Virus record (IMG/VR): IMGVR_UViG_3300025018_000289
Coordinates: 1 to 38,177 of that record
From: a virus
Lineage: Duplodnaviria; Caudoviricetes
DNA: 38,177 nt
Reading direction: 5' to 3' (one strand)
Shown: piece by piece, positions 483 to 23,018 of the stretch
How the letters are laid out: every line of letters begins with the position of its first letter
Numbering within the stretch: position 1 is the stretch's first letter
The notes under the pieces: model-generated
Databases searched by the model: none
The model's input: only the letters and a program-made list of their open reading frames with translations
Told to the model about the DNA's origin: nothing
Position numbers and translations under genes: made by a program

Positions 483-835
483 ATGGTGGTAATAGACTCA
501 TCGCCGAGAATGCGCCGAATAGAGCAAATTATTTGGTCAATGCTCCGGGTAATGATCCTATTGCCCGCCTCACCGTACAAGATCACCATCATCTCATCCC
601 GTGTGATAAGAGTGCCGCGGTTATCAACCAGGGCGTCGAGGACATTCGCCTGGGAGCGCGTGAGCTGCACGGATTTACGCTTGAACGCGATCGTGCCGCA
701 GGCGCGGTTATATACTCCGGATCCTATTTTCACGGGCGTGTTCTCTGCCGCTATTGCATCGGCAAGCCTGCACAAATCCGCCGCGATCTTGCGGATCTGC
801 ACTGCAATTGGGCTTATAGATGGTTTGCGTTTCAT
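455..835 (-). CDS. OmpR/PhoB-type winged-helix DNA-binding protein with no receiver domain
   Basis: VQLTRSQANVLDALVDNRGTLITRDEMM...RSIDQIICSIRRILG..ITTICGRGW fits Trans_reg_C. Confidence 0.85.
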   Translation of the reverse strand: MKRKPSISPIAVQIRKIAADLCRLADAIAAENTPVKIGSGVYNRACGTIAFKRKSVQLTRSQANVLDALVDNRGTLITRDEMMVILYGEAGNRIITRSIDQIICSIRRILGDESITTICGRGWILC

Positions 836-1491
836 TGGTTGAAGATCCTTACATTGATTGAGTGAAAAAGGTTGCTAGCGGCAACCACGGCAAAATCCAC
901 GCGCCCGGTCGGCAGATCCATGATCGGGATAAAATAAGAGTTGGTCAGGTCCGGGCTGGCGATGGTGTAAAGCTGAGTGTAGCTGACCCCGCCGTTCGTG
1001 GAGATTGCGATATCCACATAATCAAAGCCCGCCTCGTGCCAGACAAATTCCTGATATCCCGGCTGCAGGACGGCCTGGCCGTTGGTGGGCGAGACCCATC
1101 GCACGCCGCAGATCGCGAAATCAGCCTTAGACATGGCGCCTTCCCAGAAATCGATCTCATCGGATGTGCTGCTCCATAGCGTACGCAGACCGATCCGCGC
1201 GTGCTCAGTCCAGAGATCCGGAGTTACGCGGAATGAGTAGTTGTAGACATTGGTACCCCAGGCTGCGTCCAGTCCATTGGCTATCCGCTTATGCCAGTTG
1301 GTCCCGCTATTGAGAGAGAGATCGAGATTCACCCGCGCGACCTCCCCGAAGTTTGTCGCGAAATAGGGCGTATAGGGGCGGGTGAATTCGATGGTGCGAT
1401 CGAGTACGTAATTGAACGGATCAAATGCCGCCGCTACAGTGAGCGCGCTCAGCATAAGCATTGCAATAATCCGGATATGCGTTACGGCCAC
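832..1491 (-). CDS. Signal-peptide-bearing, beta-rich (Ig-like) protein in the tail module
   Basis: N-terminus MAVTHIRIIAMLMLSALTVAAA|F. Two similar V(N/D)(L/I)xxSxNxGxx(W/Y) segments. Confidence 0.7.
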   Translation of the reverse strand: MAVTHIRIIAMLMLSALTVAAAFDPFNYVLDRTIEFTRPYTPYFATNFGEVARVNLDLSLNSGTNWHKRIANGLDAAWGTNVYNYSFRVTPDLWTEHARIGLRTLWSSTSDEIDFWEGAMSKADFAICGVRWVSPTNGQAVLQPGYQEFVWHEAGFDYVDIAISTNGGVSYTQLYTIASPDLTNSYFIPIMDLPTGRVDFAVVAASNLFHSINVRIFNQ

Positions 1492-3605
1492 GTCTGACTC
1501 CAGTCGTTTGTCGTGATTCCAAAAGCCCGGTAAATCACTTGAGTGGCGCCGTAGATGGCTAGCTCATCACCAACCCAGCGCGGCGTGATAAGGGTCGGAG
1601 CATCGTTGGTGGATGACTGAGGCGCGGTCAACGTAACAGTGGTGCGATAATTCATTATATCGGCGCCAGTGGCGCCGTCGCTCCCCACTTGCCACTTCTT
1701 GCCGCTTGAGGCAAGCAATGTTGCGACTTGACTGACCTCGTCCATCGAGACCGCAAACATGCTGCCTGTAGTGCTGATGTCTAGCGAGCCAAGTATATCC
1801 TGGATAAACCCAACTCCGCCAATTTCCACCACATCTACGATCGCCGTCGAGGCATGCACATTGGCCCATCTCTGACTGCTAGAGCCTAGAGACATTGAAC
1901 TTGAGTATTTCGGAGACATGGCGCTGGGAGTGAAATCGTATTGGTTGGTACTCGCCCCAAACATCACATAAAACTCATCGTTGACATACAGGAACGCGTC
2001 GCCTTTTACGGCAGTGGGGAAGTTAGTCCCGTACAGTGCAAAATAAGCGCTTGAACCGGATTTGCCTAATGTAGTTAAGCCGCTGGCATCAATGTTGTAA
2101 AACTGAAATGATCCGGTGTTGCCGGAGACCGCGCCTAGATTGGTTATGGATTGCCCTCCAGCGTTCTGCGAGCCGGTCCACGCGACAGATCCATTTGCAA
2201 GTATATAACCCACAATAGAGTGATCGCCCCAGCCGTAAGCAGTGTCCCAGTTGCCGGTGTTGCTGAGATCCGGCGTATTGGCCAGCCAACTGTAATCCAA
2301 CCCAAAGAACTGCTTGCCGGACTCAAGGTGGATGCCATCCGCCGCCCAGTACCAGACCCGGTTGCTTTGAACCGTAAAACCCTCCGCATAGTCGCCGTTG
2401 TAGCTAAACCGATACTTCCCCAGGTCCCGGTCATCCCCCCATGTGTAGGCCGGGGCTGTAACGGATCCATCGTACGCGGCCGGATTGACCGCCAGCACGT
2501 CCGAGAGCAGATGCAGGGATCCGGCTTTAAGCGTCAACCCGAGCAAATCGAAATATGCAGTCTCGTAGCCGCCCACATTAAGCACCATCGAAGGCAGGTT
2601 GCCGGGCCGCAGGATGCGATAGGCGCCGACCTCGCTGATTGATACATCGGTGCTTGCCGCGACATCACTCAAGATCAGGATATTGCTGATGCTTGTCCCC
2701 TCCGTTGCTACCGGCCCGAGCAGCAGGGACCCAGTTGCGTGATCGTACTTGAGCCCGTAGCCGTCCTCTTCCAGGCCGGGCAGTAATTCGCTCACTGGTA
2801 CCGATCGGATCTTAACAACCGCCGCGTTGGTGCTGGGCCCTGATACGTCCCCGCCCATAGTAGCCATACCCTGAGCGGCATCGATGCCGGCCTGCAGGAC
2901 CGCATTACTGGACTGCCAGCTGGTGATGTCCACTTTAGCGGTCTGCAGCACGCCTATAGCGTCGGCATTGGCCGTTATTCCGGCCTGCAGCACGAGATTG
3001 GATCCCTGCCATGCGGCAATGCTCACTTTGCCGGTGCTGAGCACTTCCAGCGCGGCGATGGTGATTGCGTTGGTTGCATCGAACACTGATCGCTCGACCA
3101 TCCCGGTGATGGATGCCTCGACGGCCGCAATCTGCGCCTCAACCCACGCGACGGTTGCATAATTGGACGAGTTCCACGCCCAGCTGTTCACGGCCGTAGT
3201 GCCTGGGCTGTCGAGGATATCGAACTCGCCGCGGATCCACTCCTGGATTGAGCCCGTGGTGTTAGTTACGATGATTTGCGCGAAGTACTCACCCGGTACC
3301 GCTGTCTGGTCAGAGGTGAGCGTCCACTCAAGATAGTCAAGCCCGCTGCTGGTATTGGTGACGGCCATGCCGACCTCGTCTGTGGCGTTCGACGAGAAAT
3401 AGAATATAGCTCCGAGGTTACTGACAGACGTGTAAGCGCTGCCATTCTCCCGGATATAAGCGCGGAGGGTAGGGGTAGTCTGTTCTGCCGCCTCAAATAG
3501 AAAGTCTCTGTTCTTCTTGCGCAAATCAGCTTCGGTTGACTGGATCTGCTGAGCAAAGGCATGCGTCGCGAACACGAGCCCCAGAATTATGCCTGACCAC
3601 CTCAT
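1482..3605 (-). CDS. Tail fibre / receptor-binding-like protein with an N-terminal signal peptide
   Basis: Follows the distal tail genes. Baseplate-anchor-like N-terminal beta domain, internal repeat (KVSIAAWQGSNLVLQAGI / KVDITSWQSSNAVLQAGI), fibre-like motifs NWDTAYGWGDH and LGSSSQRWANVH. Begins MRWSGIILGLVFATHAFA|QQ. Confidence 0.7.
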   Translation of the reverse strand: MRWSGIILGLVFATHAFAQQIQSTEADLRKKNRDFLFEAAEQTTPTLRAYIRENGSAYTSVSNLGAIFYFSSNATDEVGMAVTNTSSGLDYLEWTLTSDQTAVPGEYFAQIIVTNTTGSIQEWIRGEFDILDSPGTTAVNSWAWNSSNYATVAWVEAQIAAVEASITGMVERSVFDATNAITIAALEVLSTGKVSIAAWQGSNLVLQAGITANADAIGVLQTAKVDITSWQSSNAVLQAGIDAAQGMATMGGDVSGPSTNAAVVKIRSVPVSELLPGLEEDGYGLKYDHATGSLLLGPVATEGTSISNILILSDVAASTDVSISEVGAYRILRPGNLPSMVLNVGGYETAYFDLLGLTLKAGSLHLLSDVLAVNPAAYDGSVTAPAYTWGDDRDLGKYRFSYNGDYAEGFTVQSNRVWYWAADGIHLESGKQFFGLDYSWLANTPDLSNTGNWDTAYGWGDHSIVGYILANGSVAWTGSQNAGGQSITNLGAVSGNTGSFQFYNIDASGLTTLGKSGSSAYFALYGTNFPTAVKGDAFLYVNDEFYVMFGASTNQYDFTPSAMSPKYSSSMSLGSSSQRWANVHASTAIVDVVEIGGVGFIQDILGSLDISTTGSMFAVSMDEVSQVATLLASSGKKWQVGSDGATGADIMNYRTTVTLTAPQSSTNDAPTLITPRWVGDELAIYGATQVIYRAFGITTNDWSQTWP

Positions 3606-3625
3606 GACAATGGCCAGAGAATCAA
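3606..3625 (-). promoter_or_regulatory. Putative late promoter motif, copy 1 (TTGA-TTCTCT-GGCCAT-TGTC-ATG)
   Basis: Directly abuts the ATG at 3605; one of 7 copies with identical spacing. Confidence 0.7.
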
Positions 3626-3629
3626 GCCC

Positions 3630-4901
3630 TCACGTATAAGACCAGTTCCAGGTAATCACCCAGTATGTTTCCTTGTTCATCTGGCATCCGTGCCACGGAA
3701 TATCTTTGCCGCCCGAAGTTTGGTTGTCGTAAACATCGCCGCCATACCCAAAAAGGTTATATTCCGATGACGCGTGAGCAGGGAAAGCCAGGCTCGGGTT
3801 GAAGCTGTAGTTATGACTTGCCGACGACGATGACGCAAAACTCTGGACCTTGACGAATCGACCTGCAGCGGATACGCGCCCGGCGTAATTTATGGGCTTC
3901 CATGTGACGTTCGCAGGTGCGTCACCCGGCGGCGGAACGCCGTAATCGATCCAGTATTTGCCTGCCGTCAGGAAACTGCCTGTTGCGTATTCGATTTCGG
4001 ACATAGTCACTTCATCGCAAACAAGATACAGATCCGCGCTGTGCGAGATCGATGTGGGCAGCCCGGTGATTTGCACGAATCCAGCCTCGGTTACGGACGC
4101 AACGACATGTCGAGCAACCAAAGCAGATCCGTAGTACGTCCGCAGCATCACGCCCATGCGGTTTGTGATGACGCTGGATTCAAGCGCATTCTCGGAGATG
4201 TTTCCCGCGTGGTCATAAGTGTTTGTGTAATGACCTGTGGTCCAGTCGTGATTCATCCTTGCGGCGTCGTAGTCGGTCGATGTGCCGCCCGTGCCGCCGG
4301 AATGATTGCGCCCCCAGTAAATGCGCCAGGGGGCATAAGTTTGCAGGTGATACGTTCGGTCATCAGGAGTGCCGCTGTTGTCCCACTGCAAAGGGGGTTG
4401 ATACAACACGCTGCCATTTTTGACTGCAAGCGTGTATTTGAGCTTCTTCAAGGCAAGCTGCATATCCGTGATCAACCACGGCCCGATCGCGTCCCCTGTG
4501 ACGTGCCGCCCGTACGTCCATGCGTTAGCGGATGTGTATCTCCTTGGACCGGATGAGCTACCGACCGCGGCCAGCCATAACGCGCCCACGTCTGCAGATC
4601 CGTTGTAAACCGATATCGACCCCTCTGCCGTGTCCTCATAATCCGGGATCGTGCCGGTCGTTTGCAGAAAATAGCTATTATTCGCAGCCGCGTCGCTGAG
4701 TAGAGTCGAAAGCCTGTCGTACCACGCTTTCCAAAACGCATTGTCCTGTAAATTTACGCCCGCTGCAATGCTGTTTGCAGGCAAGCACCAGCTCGGAGTT
4801 GCAGCCGGGCACATCACCTGATAGCGCTCATAGAATGCGTTTTGAAGTTCCTGAAACAACTCTTTCGCTTGGATCGTTGTGGCTGTCGTAAACGCTGCCA
4901 T
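3630..4901 (-). CDS. Tail-associated structural protein; start reassigned to MAAFTT at 4901
   Basis: TAATG coupling with the upstream stop; tail-module position; G/S/T/Y-rich. Confidence 0.65.
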   Translation of the reverse strand: MAAFTTATTIQAKELFQELQNAFYERYQVMCPAATPSWCLPANSIAAGVNLQDNAFWKAWYDRLSTLLSDAAANNSYFLQTTGTIPDYEDTAEGSISVYNGSADVGALWLAAVGSSSGPRRYTSANAWTYGRHVTGDAIGPWLITDMQLALKKLKYTLAVKNGSVLYQPPLQWDNSGTPDDRTYHLQTYAPWRIYWGRNHSGGTGGTSTDYDAARMNHDWTTGHYTNTYDHAGNISENALESSVITNRMGVMLRTYYGSALVARHVVASVTEAGFVQITGLPTSISHSADLYLVCDEVTMSEIEYATGSFLTAGKYWIDYGVPPPGDAPANVTWKPINYAGRVSAAGRFVKVQSFASSSSASHNYSFNPSLAFPAHASSEYNLFGYGGDVYDNQTSGGKDIPWHGCQMNKETYWVITWNWSYT

Positions 4902-6016
4902 TAGACAGTCCTCACCCAATCCCATTCGATATCGTAATTCGTGGCGCTGGCCTTTTGCAGGACCATGCTCGTGGAGCCGCCGGTCGGCATGCTGGTAGGT
5001 GCATCGATCCACGAAAAGGTTCCGCTTGCGTTCTGCAGGATCTTCGTGCCTGTCGGTTTACTGAGTACCGCCCACGCGCTCCCATTGTGAATTATCATAT
5101 CGCCGCCAGTGCCGCTAGGGATCGACCCGGATGCATCTTCCCATGTCGCCAGCCAGCTGCCAGCCGACGAGTTTAGCGTCAACACCTGTCCGTCAGATTT
5201 CGTTCCACCGGAGCCCAATTGCGTTCCGATGCAATAGGCCATTTCCTTTGCAACAAAAACCTGATTTGCCCCGGCGGGCGCATACAGCATCACGGGGCCA
5301 ATAAATGTGTCTGTAATAGTCGTGATGTTTGAGTCAATCAGGCTGGCGGTCATCCGGAGATAAGTACTGAAGGTGTTGGCTGTATCATTCCAGCGCACAA
5401 AGCCCGTACCTACTCCCTCAAGCACATCGTAGATATCGGATGGACCATCCGCCCAGCTCGCGACCGATCCGTCTGTTGTCAGGAACTTTCCGCTATTGCC
5501 AGTTTGAGCGGGAAGCTGATCCGGGATCTCGGCCCACGCAGGAACGCCCGAAACGATCGACAATACTGTTCCCTCAGCTCCAACGCCTCTTAACTGCCAT
5601 TCACCAGCGGTATTGTTCCACACCAGCAACTGCCCCTCGGCTGAGCCGTTACCTAACTGTTTGATCGCCTCCCAGCTGGCCGCTGTGCCGTTTGTCGTCA
5701 GAAATTTGCCGTCATGCCCCGATTGTGCGGGCAGCACCGACGCAAGCTCCTGCCATGTCGGAGAGTCAGTACCATTTGATACCAGCGCAAAACCGTCAGT
5801 AGACGCGTCGTGAGGAGGGATTGTTTCGAGCTCAAGCGACGGCAAGTTGACTATAACCTGCCATGGATTCGCCTCACTGGGCGCTGCTGTTTTTTCGATC
5901 AGGCAATTAACGCCGCCGATATTGTTGAGAATGGCCGAAACGGTCTCAAACCATTCGAGCGGGATCTGGGTGATCGGACCGCCCGGCGCAAACTTCTCCT
6001 GTAGAGGCCACGTCAT
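4901..6016 (-). CDS. Tail fibre-like protein with repeated LPAQxGxxGKFLTT(N/D)GxxASW units; start at MTWPLQ (6016)
   Basis: Two copies of the repeat, typical of phage fibre shafts; lies downstream of the tape measure gene. Confidence 0.7.
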   Translation of the reverse strand: MTWPLQEKFAPGGPITQIPLEWFETVSAILNNIGGVNCLIEKTAAPSEANPWQVIVNLPSLELETIPPHDASTDGFALVSNGTDSPTWQELASVLPAQSGHDGKFLTTNGTAASWEAIKQLGNGSAEGQLLVWNNTAGEWQLRGVGAEGTVLSIVSGVPAWAEIPDQLPAQTGNSGKFLTTDGSVASWADGPSDIYDVLEGVGTGFVRWNDTANTFSTYLRMTASLIDSNITTITDTFIGPVMLYAPAGANQVFVAKEMAYCIGTQLGSGGTKSDGQVLTLNSSAGSWLATWEDASGSIPSGTGGDMIIHNGSAWAVLSKPTGTKILQNASGTFSWIDAPTSMPTGGSTSMVLQKASATNYDIEWDWVRTV

Positions 6017-6017
6017 T

Positions 6018-6311
6018 TTAAGCCCACGCCCCTTTGACATCATACGTCGCGGTCACGGAGTACGCGCCTGCGTCATTCTGCCGGTCCGCATGCACGTCTG
6101 TTATGTTGGCTGCTGAGCTCAAAGAGGCGGCCAGTGCCTCGGCGACCGCCTGAGTCATCGCGGAATAGAATTGCGTGTAGATTGTGCGGGATCGCGTCAA
6201 TTCGCCTGTCACGTAAAATTGCCCCTCAAAGAAGTAACCGGTCCAGCGCCTTTCGGTGATGTACTTCTTTGTCGTTGTCCACGGAGTTGGTGCTGCTGTT
6301 AACCAGGCCAT
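6018..6311 (-). CDS. Small tail protein (distal-tail position)
   Basis: Immediately after the tape measure gene, TAATG-coupled. Confidence 0.6.
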   Translation of the reverse strand: MAWLTAAPTPWTTTKKYITERRWTGYFFEGQFYVTGELTRSRTIYTQFYSAMTQAVAEALAASLSSAANITDVHADRQNDAGAYSVTATYDVKGAWA

Positions 6312-7975
6312 TATTTCATCCTCATAAGTTCTTCGAGCAGCTTCCTTGTTGCCGCCGTGTTTTCTGCGATCTCCCCCAAAGCTTTCTGCGCTGCTTCCTT
6401 CTCTTTCTCCGCATTCATCACGCGCTGAGCCGCCTGCTCCTGATCCGTGAGCTGCATTCCCGCCGCAACCTTGAACCCGACGCGCTCCTTGTCTTTTGCG
6501 AACTGGTCCCGCATAGCCTTGTCCTGCGCTTCCGCCTCTTTGCGCTGTTTGCGCAGTTCGGGATCTTTGTATTCCGCCCAGGCCTGAGATGCCGCCTGCT
6601 CTGCGCGAGACAGACGATCCTGCTGCTTTGACTGCTCGTCGCCCAGTTGCGAGATTGCGGCCCGCTTCAGGTTCTTTTCCTCTTCGACCAGCGCCCTCAT
6701 GTCCTTGGCACGCTGGTCAGCTAACTCCTTGTCAGCTTTCTCTTGAGCCTTCTTCGCTTCCTCGGCTAATTTAGCGGCGGTCTTTTCGTCTTTCTGCGCC
6801 TGTGCTAGCTTCAGGTCTTTGGTTCTAGCCTGTTCCTCAGTTATCTTTTCATCCTCGGCCTTCTTGGCTGCCTGCGCATTCTCCTCTTTGGCAGCTGCAC
6901 GGATCTTGCTGGCTCTCTCGCCAGTGTAAGACTCCTTTGCGGTCGTTTTGGCCACTCCCCATGCGTCTTTAAGCCCCATTCCTGTTGTTAACGCACCCGC
7001 ACCCGCCATGGCACCTTTGATAGCGGCAATCTGGGCCTTGTTCACTGTCATCGCGGTATCAACTGTGAGTTTAGCGCCAGACCATTTGTATGCAAATTTC
7101 AACCCCTTAGAGACGGTCTGGATTGTAATGGCAAGGTCTTCAAGCGACGTTTTTACCTGATCCGCCCATACCTCAATGCTGCCGTTCTCTTTCAGTTCTT
7201 CCATCATCTTGATCAGTAGTTTGATCTCGTTCTTTGCGATATCTTCAAAGGATTTGCCAAACTCAGCCAGCGTTAGATTCCAGTTATCCTTCATAGTCGA
7301 AAACAAGCCCTCGCCCGTAGTGGACAACTCTTCCATGCCGCCCTTATACTTCTCCATAGACTCTTGGAGCTTAGCCCACACCTCTGCGTTAGTCGCGCCT
7401 TCAGCCTGCAACTTTTCCATCTCGGCGCGCACATCAGGAGTAATGATGCCCAGCTCCATGAGGCGCTGCGCCGCTTCGCCGAACGGTCGCCCTGATTTGA
7501 TGGCGCCGTAAGCACGTCCGACCCATGTGGCCAGCTCGCCTATGTTTGCCCCAGTCGCAGTGGCGGCATCACCGACTAACTCAAGGGACTCTTTTGCCCC
7601 CATGACTCCGTTAGTCATCACGATCAGCGTGCGCGATGCCTGAGCGATATCTCCGAATTCAAGCGGAGTACTAGCAGAGAAGTTTTTCAATTCCGCGATA
7701 TGCTGCTTTGCCTTCTCCAGGCTCCCGAACAGTACTTTGAACTGCACCTCATACCGCTCAAACTCAAAGGCTGACTTGATGGAGCTGGTAAACAGTTTCA
7801 GCGCGCCCGCGACACCAGCTGTGACGCCAATAATCCTGGCCATGCTGCCCATCATGCTCTTGATGCTGCCGCCAACTTTACCAGCCAAGCCTTGGAAGTT
7901 CTGACGGACCTTGCTGAGGCCGGCCTTAGTGGAATCTTTGGCCCTTATGATAAATTCTAGGATCTTGCTACCCAC
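6311..7975 (-). CDS. Tail tape measure protein
   Basis: LEFIIRAKDST start, tape-measure motif (FSASTPLEFGDIAQASRTL...LVGDAATATG), long Ala/Lys-rich helical body, AGGAGG RBS upstream. Confidence 0.9.
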   Translation of the reverse strand: MGSKILEFIIRAKDSTKAGLSKVRQNFQGLAGKVGGSIKSMMGSMARIIGVTAGVAGALKLFTSSIKSAFEFERYEVQFKVLFGSLEKAKQHIAELKNFSASTPLEFGDIAQASRTLIVMTNGVMGAKESLELVGDAATATGANIGELATWVGRAYGAIKSGRPFGEAAQRLMELGIITPDVRAEMEKLQAEGATNAEVWAKLQESMEKYKGGMEELSTTGEGLFSTMKDNWNLTLAEFGKSFEDIAKNEIKLLIKMMEELKENGSIEVWADQVKTSLEDLAITIQTVSKGLKFAYKWSGAKLTVDTAMTVNKAQIAAIKGAMAGAGALTTGMGLKDAWGVAKTTAKESYTGERASKIRAAAKEENAQAAKKAEDEKITEEQARTKDLKLAQAQKDEKTAAKLAEEAKKAQEKADKELADQRAKDMRALVEEEKNLKRAAISQLGDEQSKQQDRLSRAEQAASQAWAEYKDPELRKQRKEAEAQDKAMRDQFAKDKERVGFKVAAGMQLTDQEQAAQRVMNAEKEKEAAQKALGEIAENTAATRKLLEELMRMK

Positions 7976-8093
7976 GGGCGAGCCTCCTGGCTTTGCGCCG
8001 GTAGTAGCGGCCCTCTATTTCGCCCAGGACGCGTCCGCAGCCCTTAGCCACAAGAACACCCACGACAAGTACTATTCGGCCCACCATCCTCAT
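7968..8093 (-). CDS. Small hydrophobic/basic peptide, 41 aa (not in the ORF track)
   Basis: MRMVGRIVLVVGVLVAKGCGRVLGEIEGRYYRRKARRLARG*. ATGA-coupled to the upstream ORF and fills the gap before the tape measure gene. Confidence 0.5.
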   Translation of the reverse strand: MRMVGRIVLVVGVLVAKGCGRVLGEIEGRYYRRKARRLARG

Positions 8094-8896
8094 ACTGCAT
8101 CCTCCTGTGGTTGCTCTGTGCGGTGCGCCTCTATGATGGCCACGATTGCATTCCGGAAATTCTGGATTGCGATACCCAGCGCATCGAGCGGGCTGGGCCC
8201 TTCACGGTGCTGCCGCGCCCGCTCAATCATGCAGGCGTTGAGATAGGCACGCATGGTCTCATCCTTGCTCGTGCGGGTCCGCCAGTAATCCGGATCCGTT
8301 CCGGACAGCGCCGCCAGACTATGGACGATGTCATCGTAGTTGGTACCGCGGTGTACAGGCTCGTCATCTTCGTCGCCCTTTTTCTTCAGATGCTGTGCCG
8401 GCATGACGACATCGAAGGCGGCCGAAAGTTCTGCTTCTGTTGCGCCGGTGGCCAGAATCCACTTTTTGATCGCTTCTATAGCTTCGCGTCGATCAAGCAA
8501 GTCCTTCAGCGTGCGCTCCTCCTGAACGTTCAGGAGGCGGCGAAGCAGACGTTCAAACCATCCGCGACGAGCTGTATCCGGAATGGGTTGGCCGCGGCCA
8601 TGCGCAAGGGCGAAGGTGAGAGCGTAGAACGTGTACAGCTTTGAAGAGACAAACCACGTGCAGGCGTAATTGCGGTACCATTCAGCCGCCATTATGGTCA
8701 TGGGCCACAGGAATGCAGAACCTGCTTGTGCAGGACCTTCGAGGATTCCGTCGATTTTGCCTGCAGCCTCCTGGATCTTCCCCAGTTCGTGCAGCCAGAT
8801 GATCTCGTCGAGAGTGGGCTCTATCCCAAAATCAGACCGCAGCTCCCGAATTCCCGCTTCCGCTACTCGGCTTAGCTTTGGTCTTAATGTCGGCAT
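8090..8896 (-). CDS. Putative tail assembly chaperone
   Basis: Helical protein between tail tube and tape measure genes (synteny only). Confidence 0.55.
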   Translation of the reverse strand: MPTLRPKLSRVAEAGIRELRSDFGIEPTLDEIIWLHELGKIQEAAGKIDGILEGPAQAGSAFLWPMTIMAAEWYRNYACTWFVSSKLYTFYALTFALAHGRGQPIPDTARRGWFERLLRRLLNVQEERTLKDLLDRREAIEAIKKWILATGATEAELSAAFDVVMPAQHLKKKGDEDDEPVHRGTNYDDIVHSLAALSGTDPDYWRTRTSKDETMRAYLNACMIERARQHREGPSPLDALGIAIQNFRNAIVAIIEAHRTEQPQEDAV

Positions 8897-9008
8897 GTGC
8901 TTTCACCTTTTTCTCGATGATTTCAGTAAGTTCTTTGCCCTGCTCGGGAGTCAGGGATTGAATGTTGCAGGTCAACATGCGGCGTATGCGTTTGATGTGT
9001 ATCTCCAT
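8832..9008 (-). CDS. Small protein, 58 aa (MEIHIKRIRRMLTCNIQSL...)
   Basis: GGAGG RBS upstream; fills the gap after the tail tube gene. Confidence 0.55.
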   Translation of the reverse strand: MEIHIKRIRRMLTCNIQSLTPEQGKELTEIIEKKVKAHADIKTKAKPSSGSGNSGAAV

Positions 9009-9012
9009 GAGA

Positions 9013-9708
9013 TTAAACCTCCCGTGTTATGTGGTGTTCCCACTGCCTCGATGCCGTTTCAGCAGCGGTATTAGATCTGGTAGCGCCGTCGGTCATCTCA
9101 TCCCAGCCGGCTGCTATTGTCACGGCTGACGGGTCCTTCGTGAACTCACAAGCAAGCGTCTCGACACCGTCGCGGTTCTCGCCGGCCAGGTGATTGCCTG
9201 AGCCATCCGGCTCGTCCTGATGCTGACAGCTAAGAGTGTACGTCATACCGCGCATCCCGGCCTCTACATCATCCAAGCTGAACGCTGTACCTATAGCAAC
9301 CAGGGCAAGCGTCCTCGGAATACCGTAACCTGCAGGAAAAACGATGGAAGGCGCATACTCGTTGAAATCGCCGTCTACATGAGCATTGTCATCATGCTGG
9401 TGGACCGTGACAGTCAGCTGAGGCCAGCCGGTTGCTTGCGGGGTGAGGGAGATGCTGTCTATGTGGTAGCCGCCTTTAACGCTGCCGACATTCGGAAGGA
9501 CCAGATTGCCCGCGGAGGCAAAGCATTCGTATTTGATAGTTCCGGCCGTCTTGCCGTCGTGTAACTGGTTTGCGGACTCATCACCGTTCGCCGCGAGGCC
9601 CTGCGCGCGCTGATTGGAATCGGCAAGCCCATCATCCTGCACGACCCAATCGCCGCCCAGGCTCAGAACGTCGGAGGGATTGAAAAACGGTACTAATTTG
9701 TCAGACAT
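9013..9708 (-). CDS. Putative major tail (tube) protein
   Basis: Acidic beta-rich 231 aa protein between tail terminator and chaperone/tape measure; AGGAG RBS; preceded by a copy of the late motif. Confidence 0.65.
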   Translation of the reverse strand: MSDKLVPFFNPSDVLSLGGDWVVQDDGLADSNQRAQGLAANGDESANQLHDGKTAGTIKYECFASAGNLVLPNVGSVKGGYHIDSISLTPQATGWPQLTVTVHQHDDNAHVDGDFNEYAPSIVFPAGYGIPRTLALVAIGTAFSLDDVEAGMRGMTYTLSCQHQDEPDGSGNHLAGENRDGVETLACEFTKDPSAVTIAAGWDEMTDGATRSNTAAETASRQWEHHITREV

Positions 9709-9741
9709 GGCTTATCTCCTGAGCTTAGTTAAAGACCTCAT

Positions 9742-9761
9742 GAGAATGGCCAGAGAATCAA
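9742..9761 (-). promoter_or_regulatory. Putative late promoter motif, copy 2 (TTGA-TTCTCT-GGCCAT-TCTC-ATG)
   Basis: Nearly identical to copy 1; upstream of the tail tube gene. Confidence 0.7.
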
Positions 9762-9765
9762 TCTG

Positions 9766-10203
9766 TCACAGACGGCCGCCTGTGCTGAACACAAGTTCGC
9801 ACTGCATGTTCAGCGTCCATGCCAGCACCTTTTTGGCTTCGTTCGCTACCGGCACGAAATCCGCTTGCGGCTCAGGGAAGCCCCCCATTTTGATGCGGAA
9901 ATTCTGAACATTGCCGCTGTTCAGGATTGGCAGCGCCTTGACGATCTGCATACTGAAGACGAGCGCATGCGGGCGCTGCGCGAAAGCTGCCTCGATGCGT
10001 GCAGCTATATGAACCGAAACCACATCCGGTGCCCAAGTCGTCTGTTCGTTGCCGCCAGGTCCACCAGTATAGAGAGCCCAAGCATTTACTATTGGAGGTA
10101 TATATCCCCGAAAGGCCTGCTTGCCTTCAACGCTGCCGGTCGCCTTGCAAAGCGCATTAAATACCGTGCTTTCCGCCTCAACCCATGCATTGTCAAAGTT
10201 CAT
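9766..10203 (-). CDS. Putative tail terminator / tail completion protein
   Basis: Size and position before the tail tube gene. Confidence 0.55.
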   Translation of the reverse strand: MNFDNAWVEAESTVFNALCKATGSVEGKQAFRGYIPPIVNAWALYTGGPGGNEQTTWAPDVVSVHIAARIEAAFAQRPHALVFSMQIVKALPILNSGNVQNFRIKMGGFPEPQADFVPVANEAKKVLAWTLNMQCELVFSTGGRL

Positions 10204-10726
10204 ACCAGCCCGCCCTCCTATGTTCTGCTTTGATGATGTCGAGAATCTTGCCTTCGTTGTCCACTATCGCCCGCTTAATGAACTTGTCGTCAGCCCTTGC
10301 GCCCTTTGCTATGGTACCGGGCCCGCGATTGCGCCAACTCTTCCCTTTTGCGTCATGGATCCGGCCAGCGTACTTTCCGGCCGCCGAATTCGAAGCGACA
10401 AAGATCCGGGCTGAGTCTGATGTGACCTCGCGCTCGATGGAGCGTTCCAGGCCGCCAGGGGAGGGCCTGTAAACGGTGCGATCTTTTGCGATCTTAAATA
10501 ATCGACCATCCTTGCCCTTTTTCCAGCCTCGTCTACCTTTTGTTTTTCTGGCTTTATTGAGTAATGATGCGCTAGGGGACTTAGGCGCATTCTTCTTGGC
10601 TTCACGCTGCACCAGGATGCCGATCGCCCTCAACGCCCGCAATGATGCTGCAGGGCCGTCTTTTGCGACTCGGTTGAGGGTCTGCAGGGCTTCTCTGACG
10701 CCTTTGAGTTCTATTGCCACGTCCAT
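10193..10726 (-). CDS. HK97 gp10-like neck/tail completion protein
   Basis: VAIELKGV..A start, REAKKNAP, GGLERSI, YAGRIHD and FIKRAI motifs. Confidence 0.8.
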   Translation of the reverse strand: MDVAIELKGVREALQTLNRVAKDGPAASLRALRAIGILVQREAKKNAPKSPSASLLNKARKTKGRRGWKKGKDGRLFKIAKDRTVYRPSPGGLERSIEREVTSDSARIFVASNSAAGKYAGRIHDAKGKSWRNRGPGTIAKGARADDKFIKRAIVDNEGKILDIIKAEHRRAGWYEL

Positions 10727-10746
10727 GACAATGGCCGGAAGATAAA
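10727..10746 (-). promoter_or_regulatory. Putative late promoter motif, copy 3 (TTTA-TCTTCC-GGCCAT-TGTC-ATG)
   Basis: Abuts the ATG at 10726. Confidence 0.7.
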
Positions 10747-10751
10747 GGCGC

Positions 10752-10780
10752 TTGACCCGGCATCAGTTGATTTGTAGGCT
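10752..10780 (+). promoter_or_regulatory. Sigma70-type promoter TTGACC-N17-TAGGCT driving a plus-strand sRNA
   Basis: -35 at 10752-10757, 17-nt spacer, -10 at 10775-10780. Confidence 0.7.
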
Positions 10781-10786
10781 ATTCAT

Positions 10787-10863
10787 AGATGCTGTAAGGG
10801 TTCTGGGTGTGGATCGTCCCTGCAGCTAGACGGATCGGGCACTCACGACCACCGTCTACTTTT
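10787..10863 (+). ncRNA. Candidate ~75-nt structured sRNA convergent with the MuF-toxin gene (putative RNA antitoxin)
   Basis: Stem 1 at 10791-10800/10818-10826. Stem 2 TAGACGG/CCGTCTA at 10827-33/10852-58, followed by CTTTT. Loop complementarity TGGGTGT (10804-10) with GCACTCA (10839-45). Confidence 0.6.
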
Positions 10864-12451
10864 CCTCTGGCCAGGACAGCCAATTCCTAATGTTTCGCCG
10901 TGTTGATACCGGCAACCATGACGCAACGGTTCCTGATATCCCAACAAAAGCAACAACGCCGTGTTTGCCATCGGCTTCTATGTCAGTATAAGCGCGGGTT
11001 CCGCCAGGACGCACTCGCACGGTGCCCGTTTTGACAGCCTTGATAGCAGAGTTGATAGCAGCAAACCTGCCATCCATATCCTTGGTTGTTTTGTTTGCCT
11101 TTTCCCAATGCGCGACAGTTCTGCTACTAAAAACAACATTCCGCCCGCGAGAGTCACGAATGGTGCCGATTTCGTCAAGGGCGGTTTTTGCTGTTGTAAA
11201 CCTTATTTGCCGCCCGATCTCTTCAGGCTTGATATTATCGCGGTCAATCTTGATTACGCCACCCAGCGAGCTCTTGCGATTTGATGCAATTTGACCAGTA
11301 GCTAAATCGCCTTTCTTTGCATATTCGAAGCGAGGAATCTTATCCATGGGCAGCCGATCCAGTACTGCTGGCGGTATCTTGTCGATTTCGCCGGCATGTT
11401 CTCCGATAAGGCCTGCGCTTAACTCCCGCTTGATCTTGTCCCGCTTGAGGTCCCGCTCGGCATCTTTCGCGTTCATCCCCGCATCGCGCTTGCCTTGTAT
11501 CCGGATGTCGTCATTGTATTTCTGGACCTGCTTAGGATCCGTCCAGTCCGCACCTGGCTGCTTTCGTTGCCTGTCGATCTCTGGTCCATCAATCTCCGGA
11601 ATTACCGCTTCCAGATTGCACCCGCAATTCGGATGTCCCCAGCCGCCATCGTAGGCCTGCGAGAGGCTGGGGTAGTGGGTCCGCTGTTTCCCGCTGATAT
11701 CAACGATCAGCCCAGCCCAGGCCCTGCAATACTGACACGGTTCACCATCGTCCACGATCCGGGCCAGCTCGTAGCCCTCCTTTACAATACCGTCCACATA
11801 GCTTTCATTGGATACGCGCTGGAAGGTAGTGCGTGTAAGCATGTTTAAATAGTCTGCGTTTGCCCAGGGACGCCCCGTAGCATCGACAAACCTGTCGCTC
11901 CGCAGATTCTTCGCGAGCCGATCCCATCGCTCCTGCAGCTTCTTGTGTGTCTCTCTAGCTGTCCATCCCTCTATGGTCTGCTGTCGGAACGTGTCCAGGA
12001 AGGCTGATCTCAGATTGCGGAGGTCAGAACCAGTCATCTGCTGCGTGAAGACGCCAGCCAGATTCTTCGTATTCTTACCGTGGACTATCTCCCAGTATCG
12101 CTTGACTAGGCGTCGGTCGAATGCGACCAGGCTGCCGACCTTTGCGCCGGCGGCTTTTAGATCCTTTTTTGCCTGGCTGTGCCACTCAATTGCAGTCTGC
12201 TCAACCTGATCCTTCATCCAGGAGTCAATGCCAGCTGCAGCTAAATCGTAGACGCCGGTCACTTCGGTATACAGGGCATTCCTGGCCGCCGCACTGGTAG
12301 CTGACTTGGTTCGGGCTGCCACCGCCTCAATCTTGGCCGCCACGGCCTGCTGAGCGCGTTTAAGGCGTGTTCTGAGCTCTACCGTAGCCATGACCTCGCG
12401 GCGCTTAAGCTTCGCTATAAGCTCTGCTGGCGTTGGTTTCTTGCGGGGCAT
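10856..12451 (-). CDS. MuF / phage minor capsid protein with C-terminal extension, probably a BECR-fold (PBECR-like) RNase toxin domain
   Basis: FVDATGRPW...Y..ML.RT, PCQYC, SL..A...G.GHPNCGC motifs. C-terminal ~110 aa reads IRDSRGRNVVFSSRTVAHW...DMDGRF..I..A..AV...RAY...GVVAFV....VASW. Confidence 0.75.
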   Translation of the reverse strand: MPRKKPTPAELIAKLKRREVMATVELRTRLKRAQQAVAAKIEAVAARTKSATSAAARNALYTEVTGVYDLAAAGIDSWMKDQVEQTAIEWHSQAKKDLKAAGAKVGSLVAFDRRLVKRYWEIVHGKNTKNLAGVFTQQMTGSDLRNLRSAFLDTFRQQTIEGWTARETHKKLQERWDRLAKNLRSDRFVDATGRPWANADYLNMLTRTTFQRVSNESYVDGIVKEGYELARIVDDGEPCQYCRAWAGLIVDISGKQRTHYPSLSQAYDGGWGHPNCGCNLEAVIPEIDGPEIDRQRKQPGADWTDPKQVQKYNDDIRIQGKRDAGMNAKDAERDLKRDKIKRELSAGLIGEHAGEIDKIPPAVLDRLPMDKIPRFEYAKKGDLATGQIASNRKSSLGGVIKIDRDNIKPEEIGRQIRFTTAKTALDEIGTIRDSRGRNVVFSSRTVAHWEKANKTTKDMDGRFAAINSAIKAVKTGTVRVRPGGTRAYTDIEADGKHGVVAFVGISGTVASWLPVSTRRNIRNWLSWPEEK

Positions 12452-12454
12452 GAG

Positions 12455-12838
12455 TTACCCCCTGGCAAGATGGATCATTGGCCCAATCCCTAGCCATCGC
12501 ATAGCTTCAGGGGATATCATAGCTTTCTGAGAATCTCTTGCGTTGTCCGGCTTTTCAGGATCGGAGGCAATGAACGCAGGTGCTGATTGTTCGCCGTTAG
12601 CAATCACGCCGTTTTCTAGCATCCAGAGGGCCTGCTCGTAGACCGCGTAGTCTGGGCGAAAGGAGTAATCGGTAGTATCAACGGGCTCGTTGTCTATGTC
12701 AGAGTTGATTGCCCTATTGAGGACCCGCTTAGCGTGTGCAATGGCCGCTGTACGCTGAGGATCCGCAAAGCCGTTCCAGACCTGCGCCCTCATGTGCTGA
12801 GAAAAGTAACTGGTTGCGCCTGTAACATCTATGCTCAT
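12455..12838 (-). CDS. Head-tail connector/adaptor protein; start at MSIDVT
   Basis: A..YF..H....W.....QR.AA...A.R and AVYEQALWML...ISPEAMRWL pattern; GGAGG RBS. Confidence 0.7.
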   Translation of the reverse strand: MSIDVTGATSYFSQHMRAQVWNGFADPQRTAAIAHAKRVLNRAINSDIDNEPVDTTDYSFRPDYAVYEQALWMLENGVIANGEQSAPAFIASDPEKPDNARDSQKAMISPEAMRWLGIGPMIHLARG

Positions 12839-12861
12839 ATTGCTGCCTCCGTAAAACGGCA

Positions 12862-12892
12862 CGCCCCTCGGCAAGGAGATAACCGAGGGGCG
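12862..12892 (-). terminator. Perfect 10-bp hairpin after the capsid operon (possible weak terminator or mRNA stabiliser)
   Basis: CGCCCCTCGG-N11-CCGAGGGGCG, followed on the minus strand by TGCCGTTTT. Confidence 0.5.
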
Positions 12893-12914
12893 CTAGACGT
12901 GTCTGCACACAGCG

Positions 12915-13226
12915 TTAACCGTTTTTAGCTACTTTGAAACCTTGCTTTGTGAAATGATCAACATCAACCCTCGCACAAGTGCGCTGCCTAATCATCTCGC
13001 CGTCGCGATTGTATTTCTCAATCACAACAACATCTTTGGATTCTGCATCACGCTTTGCGGCCTCGGCTCTCTGCTTGGCTTCGCGCTCTTCGCGGGCTTT
13101 CTGCAATTCAGCCCTTGTCGGGGCGCGGGTCGAAAGCTTCGCCACTTGCTCAGCCAGTTCAGCATTCTTCTGCTTCAGGGCTTCGATCTCAGCCAGGACT
13201 TCCTTGTTCTCTTTTTCAGGTGCCAT
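12915..13226 (-). CDS. Small coiled-coil protein downstream of the major capsid gene
   Basis: AGGAGG RBS; position. Confidence 0.7.
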   Translation of the reverse strand: MAPEKENKEVLAEIEALKQKNAELAEQVAKLSTRAPTRAELQKAREEREAKQRAEAAKRDAESKDVVVIEKYNRDGEMIRQRTCARVDVDHFTKQGFKVAKNG

Positions 13227-13291
13227 AACTCAATTCCTCCTGCTCTCCCGAGCGGGGATTAACCCGCCCAGGAATTGCAAACAGTTAAACA

Positions 13292-14152
13292 TTAGGCCAG
13301 CAATGTGGCGTTCAGGTTGATGTCAATAACATTGGCCGGCTTGTAGACCTTGGCCCCGGCCGTCACTCTTGCACGGATACCATCCGCCCAGAAGCCTTCC
13401 AGCCTGATCTTCTCAATCGTCGGGCTGATCTGTACAGCCAGAGCAAGTCCGTCGCCCTTGACGCCCGCCAGGCCATGCAGGGTGCTTGATCCCTGAACAT
13501 TCCTCGACCCGTACACGCTGAATCCGAACAGATCCTTCGCGACAAGCCCGTTCTGGTGCATCTGGTCGCCCAGGTTAGTGGCCCGGCTTCCGTAGTACAG
13601 CCTGATTGCCTGAATGGCAACATTCGGGAGCGTCAGGAACCGACCTTCTGCAGGGGCATCAACATCATCCAGCCCTTTGTGCACAGCGGCGCAGAACTTA
13701 GGCCAGTCGGAGGCATCAGATCCCCACTGCCATGGTGTTGATCCTGTTTCGAAGCTGTCGCTGCCTGCGTTGGCATACTGCTCCATGACAAGCACATCGA
13801 CATCGCCGTTCAGGACATACATCATACGCGACGCCAAGGCGCCTTCCAGTGACTGGCGTCCGCATTCGATCTCGTGCATATCCCTGTCATGCAACTTGAC
13901 CGAAATAGTCTTGTCCAGCGTGATGGTCAGCGTGCTCGCCGTTGTGTCGACATCGCTGTACGTCATCGGGTTGGCTTCGTCTGTGTTTGCAGACGATACA
14001 TCGCCCTCGGTGTTGATCGTTACCTGCTTGCCTTTCTGCGTCAATCCTACACCCAGGCCAAGGTTGCAGAATTCTGATCCGACCAGGTTCTTGCGGGCAA
14101 GAAGGATCATCTTTGCCAGCATCAGTGTTGATTTGAAGTTCTCGAATGACAT
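13292..14152 (-). CDS. Major capsid protein (P22-coat/HK97 fold, no delta domain)
   Basis: G..VTIN, LTITLDK, LDDVDAP.EGRFL, G.....FGFSVY.S.NV and GAKVYKP motifs; GAGGT RBS. Confidence 0.85.
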   Translation of the reverse strand: MSFENFKSTLMLAKMILLARKNLVGSEFCNLGLGVGLTQKGKQVTINTEGDVSSANTDEANPMTYSDVDTTASTLTITLDKTISVKLHDRDMHEIECGRQSLEGALASRMMYVLNGDVDVLVMEQYANAGSDSFETGSTPWQWGSDASDWPKFCAAVHKGLDDVDAPAEGRFLTLPNVAIQAIRLYYGSRATNLGDQMHQNGLVAKDLFGFSVYGSRNVQGSSTLHGLAGVKGDGLALAVQISPTIEKIRLEGFWADGIRARVTAGAKVYKPANVIDINLNATLLA

Positions 14153-14197
14153 GTGAATTACCTCGTTATATGTTTTGTCTCAAACTGTGATCTCTAT

Positions 14198-14217
14198 ACA
14201 AATGGCCTCGATTTAAA
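14198..14217 (-). promoter_or_regulatory. Putative late promoter motif, copy 4 (TTTA-AATCGA-GGCCAT-TTGT-ATA), upstream of the major capsid gene
   Basis: Same spacing as the other copies. Confidence 0.65.
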
Positions 14218-14220
14218 GCC

Positions 14221-14829
14221 TTAGTAGTCGCCCAGGTTTATCCAGGTGATCTCCGTTGTTGCGCTAAAAGTCAGTGTTGCGTTGTTTGTGACATCATCAG
14301 CATCCACAAGGAAGTTTACATAAACATCCTTCGCTGTAGTTGTGCCATCGAACTGCGCAGATGCAGCCAGAGCCGCAGATGTTACGTTCGTAACAGCGTC
14401 AATGCTTGTTGCGGGACAAAGATCCACGCCTGTGGTCTCAAGGGCCGCGCCAGCCGCGACTGTAGTTCCGAGCGAGAAGTCGCCGCCATCAGTCACGGAG
14501 AATCCATTAGCCGCAACAGGGATGACTGTCATGTCTTTAACGGTTACGCCTAGAACGAGAATCCGGCCTTCAGGCATATCGTATACCTTCACGCCGCCGA
14601 CAGAATTCGTTCCCGATCCGCCGTAAGTGATTGTTGCAGGCGTATCAGTACACGTGACAACTGTTTTGTGAACCTCGCCGTATGACTGCGTTGCCGCAAC
14701 AGTGGTCCCGTTCACAGCGCCAGCTGTCGTGCTGTCAGCCTTGATGTATACGGGGATTATCTCGCCAGCCGCATACAATATGCCCACCATAGCCATCGCT
14801 GCAAGTGATGCCAGAATCAATTTCTTCAC
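14221..14829 (-). CDS. Putative head decoration protein with a Sec signal peptide
   Basis: Between scaffold and capsid genes; beta-rich, Thr/Ala/Val-rich; begins (GTG) MKKLILASLAAMAMVGILYA|AG with GGGAGG RBS. Confidence 0.7.
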   Translation of the reverse strand: MKKLILASLAAMAMVGILYAAGEIIPVYIKADSTTAGAVNGTTVAATQSYGEVHKTVVTCTDTPATITYGGSGTNSVGGVKVYDMPEGRILVLGVTVKDMTVIPVAANGFSVTDGGDFSLGTTVAAGAALETTGVDLCPATSIDAVTNVTSAALAASAQFDGTTTAKDVYVNFLVDADDVTNNATLTFSATTEITWINLGDY

Positions 14830-14858: not shown

Positions 14859-15566
14859 TTAGTTTATTGTCAATGTTCCAGCCATGTCGGCCTGCTCCAT
14901 CTTCGCGAGCTCTTTTTCCACATCTTCGATAGAGCCGCTTTTCGCCATTTCAATCAGAGCATCGCCCTTGATCGTCGTGGGTGTTGATGTCTCGCGACCG
15001 CCAACGTGAGGAGGTGATCCTGCGCCGCCGCCTGATGCATCGAGAATTGCGGCCTTATTCATCGCCTTCCAGGTGTCAACCTTGACCTTGATGACATTCT
15101 CGTCATCCAGGTTGTCAACGCCCTCAAAGGCTCCGGCAAAGCTTCTCTCGAGCATCTTTTGGTCTAATCCGCCAACGAACTGAATGCCTGCCTCACGGCG
15201 CAGCTCGGAAAGCCGCTGATTCCTCAGCATGCCAGCCTTTTCCTGTTCGGTGGATTGGATCTTGGTCTGCAGATCATTGAGCTGTTTAGAGAGCCCTGCG
15301 ATCTGCCCCTGCGCCTTCTCAAGGTCTGTCTTCCCAGCATTAGCAGCGTGATCAAGCTTGCCCTGCATCTCCTCAAGCTTTTTATTCAGATCCTCGCGCT
15401 CTTTCTCAAGAGCAGCAGCCTTTTCCTCCGCCTTGCGCCTTGCGGCCGCAGCGATATCATTAGCAGCTTTCTCAGGATCATGATCGGCAAGAAACTTCTT
15501 TTCCTCGTCGGTAAGAGCCTCGCCTTTTGCTACTTTTGCCAGAATATCCTTGAGCTTCATTGTCAC
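14859..15566 (-). CDS. Capsid scaffolding protein
   Basis: Long charged coiled coil with GGGAGSPP linker; between portal and capsid genes. Confidence 0.8.
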   Translation of the reverse strand: MTMKLKDILAKVAKGEALTDEEKKFLADHDPEKAANDIAAAARRKAEEKAAALEKEREDLNKKLEEMQGKLDHAANAGKTDLEKAQGQIAGLSKQLNDLQTKIQSTEQEKAGMLRNQRLSELRREAGIQFVGGLDQKMLERSFAGAFEGVDNLDDENVIKVKVDTWKAMNKAAILDASGGGAGSPPHVGGRETSTPTTIKGDALIEMAKSGSIEDVEKELAKMEQADMAGTLTIN

Positions 15567-15642
15567 ATCCTCTTTTCAGGGGTTTACACGGCCCCAGTCA
15601 ACCGTTCATGCCTGATGCGCCCAGACAAGGAGGCGAACTTAC

Positions 15643-15662
15643 AAAAGTGGCCAGCGAATCAA
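15643..15662 (-). promoter_or_regulatory. Putative late promoter motif, copy 5 (TTGA-TTCGCT-GGCCAC-TTTT-GTA), upstream of the scaffold gene
   Basis: Same spacing; immediately after the portal stop codon. Confidence 0.65.
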
Positions 15663-17213: not shown

Positions 17214-17233
17214 ATTGATGGCCGGACAATCAA
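17214..17233 (-). promoter_or_regulatory. Putative late promoter motif, copy 6 (TTGA-TTGTCC-GGCCAT-CAAT-ATG)
   Basis: Abuts the portal ATG. Confidence 0.7.
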
Positions 17234-18723: not shown

Positions 18724-19201
18724 TCTCCTCCTCAGTCATATCGTCAATGGCTCCGGTGTTCAGATTGCCATTCACGTTCAGATTGTCGGTGAATAGCGCC
18801 AGATGCCGCCCCAAGAGCTCGAGCGCCTTGATTCTGTCGTCAAACTCGATCCGGATCCCGTGTTGAGTCTGGGATATCTTCGAGATGCAGCGGCGGACCC
18901 GTTCGGGCAGCAGATCGGTGTCGGTCACATGCAGAACACCGTTACGGACCTGAAACACCTGAGATCTGTCGAGGTGAGCGATATCAGCCAGATCTTGGAT
19001 AACTTTGTCAGCTACCGCCTCGAACTTCTTGTAGCGTTTCTTCATCGCTTTCCTGATGGCATCACGGATCTCAGGCTTCTGCATACACTGCACGGACATC
19101 TTCGCCCAAGCCTTGTATCCGGCAAGCCTTGCAGCCTGGTGCTGGTTCAGGTCGATCAGGAAATGCTTTATGAAAAGCTGTTCTTTGGGTGTAAGCCTCA
19201 T
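18641..19201 (-). CDS. terS: Terminase small subunit; start at MRLTPKEQ (19201)
   Basis: LTPKEQLF...LIDLN..QAA..AGY and DRIKALELLGRHL.LF motifs. Confidence 0.92.
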   Translation of the reverse strand: MRLTPKEQLFIKHFLIDLNQHQAARLAGYKAWAKMSVQCMQKPEIRDAIRKAMKKRYKKFEAVADKVIQDLADIAHLDRSQVFQVRNGVLHVTDTDLLPERVRRCISKISQTQHGIRIEFDDRIKALELLGRHLALFTDNLNVNGNLNTGAIDDMTEEEIDAELKRLEDQTPKAGKEEGESKKQSA

Positions 19202-23009: not shown

Positions 23010-23018
23010 ATTTTACTC

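Follow-up and report, generated by a model that had tools for sequence, protein, structure and literature searches.

The 38,177-nucleotide virus record IMGVR_UViG_3300025018_000289 (Duplodnaviria; Caudoviricetes), analysed over its whole length and here termed the window, carries on its minus strand a late operon in which three genes combine a secretion-type leader with an excess of the dipeptide Thr-Asn (T-N) in the mature protein. They encode a 202-amino-acid (aa) protein resembling the cement or decoration proteins of capsids (14221..14829), a 707-aa fibre-like protein (1482..3605) and a 219-aa protein with two structurally recognised Ig/FN3-like domains (832..1491). The pattern is real, is conserved among relatives and lies outside tailed-phage assembly as it has been described. 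The sequence evidence leaves us in little doubt that all three proteins are exported, and makes it reasonably probable that they would join the virion at lysis. The likely reason for their export, one that the earlier sequence-only reading of this DNA did not give, is modification in the host envelope at T/S-N. More tentatively, and at somewhat less than even weight, we propose that export, host glycosylation at T/S-N and docking at lysis form a single chain.

The sequence-only reading had held that three structural-module open reading frames (ORFs) begin with Sec-type signal peptides, and all three indeed lie, leaders included, where it placed them within the minus-strand late operon. Leaders were called by a custom n/h/c heuristic (basic n-region, hydrophobic h-region, small residues at -3/-1), which made 15 false calls on 3200 shuffled late proteins. 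The 202-aa gene has GGGAGG 5' of a GTG start and a 20-codon leader (14770..14829, minus strand; predicted signal peptide 1-20), MKKLILASLAAMAMVGILYA, with the predicted cut before A; the 707-aa gene has an ATG start without a clear Shine-Dalgarno (SD) site, in register with the starts of its relatives, and an 18-codon leader (3552..3605, minus strand; predicted signal peptide 1-18) ending in HAFA before Q; the 219-aa gene overlaps the stop of the 707-aa gene and has a GTG start with GGAG upstream and a leader of about 21-22 residues ending in VAA before A. All 16 other late genes are without a leader (13 by the heuristic, three by reading of the sequences). Among relatives of the 219-aa protein, a leader was called in 19 of 23, and among those of the 707-aa protein in 13 of 16, the misses being hydrophobic by eye or fragments; calls were also made in 53 of 69 matches from a deeper search with the fibre N-domain; and in 41 of the 120 listed matches, out of 471 found, of the cement family. 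The leader sequences vary freely across relatives while the n/h/c form and the register are kept, which argues against mis-called starts.

The concern that the true starts might lie downstream of the hydrophobic segments finds little support either, since the families do not share a downstream start at the mature boundary. The same fact speaks against a scheme in which translation from a downstream start yields a leaderless form for virion assembly in the cytoplasm, the leader-bearing form being a side product or having a second role. In-frame alternative starts do exist, at codons 11 and 13 of the 219-aa gene (both ATG, without SD sites), 12, 14, 15, 18 and 39 of the cement-like gene and 11 and 28 of the fibre gene, and the weak initiation context of the fibre ATG would suit such a scheme; however, the upstream starts of two of the genes have SD sites, and the mature T-N sites, should they mark a modification of the envelope, would serve no purpose in the cytoplasm. 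We therefore consider it very improbable. Leaders of n/h/c form with A-x-A ends are substrates of the Sec translocon and signal peptidase I (SPase I). As none of the three sequences shows a lipobox, a membrane anchor or a barrel, the mature chains would be soluble in the periplasm. Taken together, the conserved leaders and the independent T-N excess of the mature regions, a feature shared with host surface proteins, strongly support export of the three proteins.

This excess is a second signature, which does not depend on leader prediction. Counted on the mature parts against the expectation from composition, T-N pairs number 18 versus 5.7 in the three leader-bearing proteins and 9 versus 11.8 in the 16 other late proteins of the window. 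With Ser included, S/T-N pairs in the three proteins number 27 versus 10.9 (Poisson P 2.8e-5): the 202-aa protein has 3 T-N, all in predicted loops, and the 707- and 219-aa proteins have 17 and 7 S/T-N respectively. Two leaderless tail-end proteins of 380 and 423 aa (3630..6043, minus strand), themselves rich in T and N, provide an internal control, with S/T-N counts of 4 versus 3.7 and 2 versus 4.4. In the leader-bearing clade of the cement family, four S/T-N loop columns are occupied in 45, 29, 40 and 39 of 53 rows, as against 0, 0, 1 and 1 of the 67 other rows (plus 6 at the neighbouring columns 106/109). For the fibre family, we set aside 3 repeat matches and 1 unclear row from the 69 N-domain matches and adjusted by eye the leader status given by the heuristic; T-N then amounts to 675 versus 214 in 58 leader-bearing rows and 19 versus 16 in 7 leaderless rows, the excess being at least twofold in 50 of the 58. 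T-N is by far the top dipeptide of the fibres (z 29.7), followed by S-N, and its flanks favour small and hydrophobic residues and avoid charge. In the 219-aa family the count is 109 versus 28. Outside controls show nothing comparable: 378 leaderless phage proteins have 396 versus 390, and the ratios are 0.8 and 1.2 for gp34 and gp37 of T4 and 0.6 and 0.5 for the Escherichia coli surface proteins YeeJ and Ag43.

Short motifs on exported proteins have a precedent in the general O-glycosylation system of Bacteroidota, whose motif is D-(S/T)-(A/I/L/V/M/T). The two are alike in that phage fibres accumulate a short motif found on exported proteins; they differ in that the motif of the window is T/S followed by N, and in that the related prophages lie in genomes of another phylum, Verrucomicrobiota. 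Neither DS nor DT figures among the top 12 dipeptides of the fibres. The enzyme acting at T/S-N would, on balance, be a glycosyltransferase, and by analogy with Bacteroidota O-linkage to Thr/Ser is favoured. The STT3/PglB/AglB type of N-glycosylation, with its sequon N-x-S/T, is likewise an envelope modification of exported proteins at a motif of Asn and Thr/Ser. It was considered and set aside: the sequon is not enriched in leader-bearing fibres (385 versus about 355 expected) and, within the cement family, is lower in the leader clade. Disulfide folding as the reason for export is not favoured; the three leader-bearing proteins have 0, 1 and 2 Cys, with none in the 707-aa protein, and 37 of the 53 cement domains of the leader clade have 0 or 1.

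Another reading keeps export and docking as proposed and ascribes T-N to a habit of loops or composition peculiar to the lineage, or to some modification other than glycosylation. T-N often falls in beta-turn loops, bulk periplasmic proteins of the hosts show little excess, and our search of five genomes found no matching enzyme, all of which would fit. Yet enrichment does not extend to the reverse pair N-T (0.56-0.88), beta-rich control proteins of other phyla do not exceed 1.2, and no excess is seen in those members of the same families and genomes that are without a leader. We regard a non-glycan T-N as possible, with a clearly smaller share of our confidence than the glycosylation chain.

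The sequence-only reading had called the 202-aa product a head decoration protein, an identity that fold and gene position favour at middling scores. Its gene lies between the scaffold-like and major capsid genes and belongs to PHROG 11997 (E 2.9e-13). The predicted model (predicted local distance difference test, pLDDT, 88.9) shows the leader helix followed by a two-sheet beta-sandwich of jelly-roll or Ig-like form. Its best matches among 48,161 chains are the cement of cyanophage Pam1 (7eel_H; Z 8.4, root-mean-square deviation (rmsd) 3.7, 119 aligned) and that of Ralstonia phage GP4 (8h89_J; Z 8.2, rmsd 4.0, 131 aligned), with that of Helicobacter phage KHP40 (7dou) at Z 7.1. A Foldseek search of the PDB returned only generic jelly rolls, and structure matches in BFVD were uncharacterised phage proteins and generic Ig matches. 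The cement match of the model is suggestive, not decisive, because TNF/C1q heads and small virus capsids score close behind. These cements share with the 202-aa protein the fold and a gene beside the capsid gene, as do relatives in Pseudomonas phage JG054 and at loci L001 and L049 for the latter feature; identity to the cements is 11-17%, and the window protein differs in its Sec leader and T-N loops. Chains J-R of 8h89 are the trimeric cement gp1 on the GP4 capsid surface (PMC9698820); this gp1 is traced from Ala2 and is thus without a leader, unlike the window protein.

A quick tree of the mature domain for the 120 listed cement rows places the leaders largely in one clade of 53 rows (Shimodaira-Hasegawa-like approximate likelihood ratio test, SH-aLRT, 99). 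Besides 40 of the 41 leader calls, this clade takes in 7 rows with long leaders and 6 without a call, which look incomplete by eye; the remaining 67 rows contain one call. When 81 locus-derived cement sequences are added, of which 15 are called (one of them doubtful), another quick tree has more scattered leader-bearing branches; hence, leaders were gained or lost more than once. As judged from these trees, the leader is a gain within an otherwise ordinary cement family. A leaderless member of that family, gp07 of JG054 (Nipunavirus, PHROG 11997), is 32% identical to the 202-aa protein over 131 residues and likewise adjoins the major capsid gene; it differs in lacking a leader, in having 1 T-N, in lying directly 3' of the capsid gene rather than before it, and in being annotated as hypothetical. 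In the related virus G001 (capsid 48% identical), the scaffold-capsid slot holds an unrelated protein that also bears a leader, and the tail-end fibre and accessory genes of G001 are leader-bearing too; thus, the slot, not the protein, predicts the leader.

Two further features of cement-like genes were seen. Seven relatives (P0037, P0038, P0042, P0043, P0045, P0047, P0077; L049:9313-10146) have an N-terminal extension of 45-60 residues before the hydrophobic leader, in most cases with an EF-hand-like D-x-x-x-D-G motif; the extension could represent a signal anchor or a small ORF fused to the gene. In podo-type phages (L050:8020-8724 and L141:2758-3045), a leader-bearing cement-like or small gene directly follows the portal gene and is not beside the capsid gene.

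The 707-aa protein had been read as a fibre. Its gene position and N-domain favour this, again at middling scores, with no Pfam or PHROG match. Language-model features place residues 19-156, an Ig-type domain, at 0.91 with the cluster of BppU_N, the N-terminal domain of siphophage baseplate and fibre proteins (PF10651), and template-modelling (TM) scores between predicted models are 0.48-0.54. These comparisons suggest a BppU-like baseplate-docking domain; unlike BppU_N proper, it falls below the Pfam cut-off, is preceded by a leader and is followed by a fibre body whose C-terminal half is mosaic among relatives. For the 219-aa protein, an identity as fibre or decoration part is not supported: it is not recognisable as either, and is better described as an Ig-domain accessory protein. 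Its fold resembles Ig modules of secreted enzymes, with weak matches to host surface proteins and prophage lipoproteins; matches to the family, all weak, occur in 6 of 401 Verrucomicrobiota genomes. Two prophages of the genome G322 (L140:354-1169, L112) have a tail region that ends with a lipoprotein weakly related to this family, preceded by a small leader-bearing gene.

Sequence matches make Verrucomicrobiota the likely host phylum, a label carried over from the record L041 and the genomes grouped around it. Of 401 genomes in the class of G322, 9 have a match to the primase of the window (best 54%), as do 10 of 401 in a phylum sample, Verrucomicrobiota alone having been searched; neither the primase nor the 219-aa family has relatives in viral_contigs, and no capsid match was found in 28 genomes of the family of G322. 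The fibre N-domain is present in 2 of 301 genomes of that class and in 0 of 201 of the class of G168; going by gene style we presume these classes, unconfirmed, to be Kiritimatiellia and Lentisphaeria respectively. An integrated prophage of the window's family lies in the genome G079, of the class of G322. It matches the window at 35% in the portal, 53% in the neck, 32% in the tube and 29% in the tape measure, and its fibre combines a leader and T-N sites with the N-domain seen in the window. Leader and T-N also go together in G492, G322 (two prophages) and G199, whose prophages are of sipho-, Mu- and podo-type. In six further phages or prophages (these four, G079 and G001), with late genes hand-picked from gene maps, T-N numbers 111 versus 34 in 16 leader-bearing late proteins and 50 versus 63 in 42 leaderless ones. 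Prophages with a window-type replication module in G018 and G168, of the separate class, have leaderless tail-end genes and no T-N excess.

Large surface-type proteins of the hosts share the signature (127 versus 47.5, 70 versus 32, 24 versus 9, 17 versus 6 and 17 versus 6). Several such T-N-rich proteins (L152:6056-13747, L149:8038-10491, L147:39-857, L123:10099-12588, L218:6795-7727, L212:17358-18227) have short shared C-terminal tails, G-x-V/I-F/Y-x-I-R-like or R-V-x-L-V-E-like, which could be an uncharacterised C-terminal sorting signal. In host regions of G168 and G018 (L229-L238, L190, L194), T-N is depleted in leader-bearing proteins (3 versus about 13 expected) and N-T is raised, on small counts. 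The Verrucomicrobiota genome G082 has an STT3/PglB-type oligosaccharyltransferase gene with an SWWDNG motif (L135:129-2282).

Several observations weigh against the interpretation advanced here. On the side of the leaders, the calls come from a custom heuristic and not from SignalP, and no gene was seen in the cement slot of the G079 prophage, a member of the window's family. On the structural side, TNF/C1q and small-virus jelly rolls reach Z 7-7.6, and Z of about 8 is itself near the usual best chance level; the Pfam match to BppU_N is below the curated cut-off (best relative 13.1 bits versus 23.1, E 0.079; none for the window), and a solved-structure search with the fibre N-domain profile gave nothing relevant. 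The phage also keeps the leaderless, fibre-like 380-aa gene, and the exported set may therefore be accessory. As to T-N, 8 of the 58 leader-bearing fibre rows fall under twofold and P0048 is another leader-bearing relative without excess; three small leaderless tail proteins of JG054 reach 1.9-2.9, on counts of 3-5; and the rows behind the family counts are related and hence not independent events. In the three best-sampled host genomes, the strict leader-bearing set has T-N ratios of 1.22, 1.32 and 1.04, the excess being confined to large surface-type proteins, which counts against use of the motif on all exported proteins. Finally, the search of five genomes for a modifying enzyme found a true STT3/PglB gene in G082, a PMT-like gene in G322 and none in the three others.

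Export might also serve an end away from the virion: the proteins could be virion folds repurposed at the host surface or in the periplasm for receptor masking, superinfection block or adhesion, or as decoys released at lysis. That the leader and T-N signature is common to host surface proteins, that the 219-aa fold has its likenesses among secreted enzymes, host surface proteins and prophage lipoproteins, and that the phage is temperate would all agree with this. Yet all three genes are co-oriented in the late operon, in cement and fibre slots, without an orientation or anchor of their own; leaders also occur on unrelated proteins that fill these slots in prophages of sipho-, Mu- and podo-type; and the fibre retains a baseplate-docking-like domain. 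There is also a cultured precedent in gp085-gp087 of Cellulophaga phage phi18:3 (Pachyviridae), which have leader-type N-termini (two of three by the heuristic, the third by eye) and whose records cite virion tandem mass spectrometry (MS/MS) proteomics; they differ in their Bacteroidota host and in lacking a consistent T-N excess (0.7, 1.9, 0.9), and the record has no remark on export. In light of this, a purely non-virion role appears unlikely to us, and docking on the virion is preferred.

The route that we propose is as follows. The leaders and the T-N excess occur only on the cement-slot, fibre-slot and Ig accessory genes. By established principles, the three proteins would pass through the host Sec system, be cut by SPase I and become soluble in the periplasm. 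There, T/S-N would serve as the recognition motif of a host envelope modification, which the phage reaches through export. The mature proteins would then wait in the periplasm until holin-type lysis mixes the compartments at the break of the inner membrane, whereupon cement trimers might bind the matured capsid and the BppU-like domain the distal tail. In other phages, cements and fibres are late, self-binding additions. The binding partner of the cement-like protein would be the major capsid protein, which is encoded by the adjacent gene (13292..14152, minus strand; PHROG 267, E 7.7e-14) and is itself without a leader.

Particles might instead meet the exported parts before general lysis, either by crossing into the periplasm or vesicles or because the proteins stay tethered to the inner membrane by their leaders up to their release. 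The seven extended, signal-anchor-like cement relatives lend this some colour, as does the absence from the window of any classical holin or muramidase recognised by Pfam or PHROG. However, cleavage-type A-x-A ends are kept in most rows, and a peptidase, two lipoproteins and a small membrane protein make a plausible lysis cassette; moreover, we know of no route that carries a tailed particle across an intact inner membrane. Such an early meeting thus seems to us quite improbable, and we retain docking at lysis. The probable cassette, whose role is deduced from its gene content, spans 36656..38144 (minus strand) and encodes a papain-like peptidase (PF00112, below E 1e-4), a lipoprotein with a lipobox and a small membrane protein. 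Close by, across the terminal overlap, another short lipoprotein ORF is found at about 94-280. The C1 peptidase of the window is thus flanked by lipoproteins; the G199 prophage has a relative of it (26%).

Turning to the rest of the genome, the first 40 bases of the window are repeated at 37995, and the terminal overlap is about 183 bases (1-183 / 37995-38177, with one base difference seen); the window is therefore probably a complete circular genome, despite the classification of the record as linear and 59% complete. DNA nearly identical to it is listed from aquifer metagenomes, one of which may be its source, and from no RNA data set. The late genes run, on the minus strand, from the small and large terminase through portal, scaffold-like gene, 202-aa gene, major capsid, head completion, neck, tail, tape measure and tail-end genes to the 707- and 219-aa genes. 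The scaffold-like, portal and terminase genes (14859..19249; Pfam/PHROG and ORF map) have no leaders, nor do the minor head, neck, terminator-like, tube-like, chaperone-like, tape measure and distal-tail genes (6018..13226; Pfam/PHROG, the tube, terminator and chaperone labels resting on gene position only). The phage is temperate, as judged from its gene for a serine integrase (19218..20741, minus strand; PF00239 and PF07508, PHROG 95). The replication module (22575-33339), with primase, RecD-like helicase, ERCC4-like nuclease and exonuclease, is common to prophages of two Verrucomicrobiota classes with very different virion modules.

Phage proteins that use Sec are well known in the form of filamentous phage coat proteins, signal-arrest-release endolysins and spanins. 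These belong to membrane-assembled virions or to lysis, whereas the window proteins would be soluble outer parts of a tailed particle. In the open literature that we searched, which mostly leaves aside subscription journals, we found no description of exported virion parts of tailed phages or of a T-N motif. The available text on phage P8625 reports no signal peptides (PMC4642752), that on the head spikes of RcGTA has signal peptides only in its methods (PMC5026251), and that on two Bacteroides phages notes signal peptides on genes that it does not tie to the virion (PMC5723332).

Against this backdrop, we tentatively propose that in one Verrucomicrobiota class tailed phages, whether of sipho-, Mu- or podo-type, might send their cement, fibre and accessory proteins through Sec, have them glycosylated at T/S-N by an undescribed host system and complete the particle with them at lysis. 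The assembly of tailed phages is taken to be wholly cytoplasmic, and a second compartment would come into play if the outer parts, which are added last, were exported. If true, export would give these phages access to a host envelope modification, which could dress the particle in host-like sugars or tune its adhesion or stability. The occurrence of leader-bearing and leaderless members within one family offers a ready natural experiment in this regard. The T/S-N motif also makes a concrete, testable prediction about the surface proteome of a bacterial class that has been little studied; phage proteins might thereby point to a new bacterial glycosylation motif as well as to an assembly route through two compartments.

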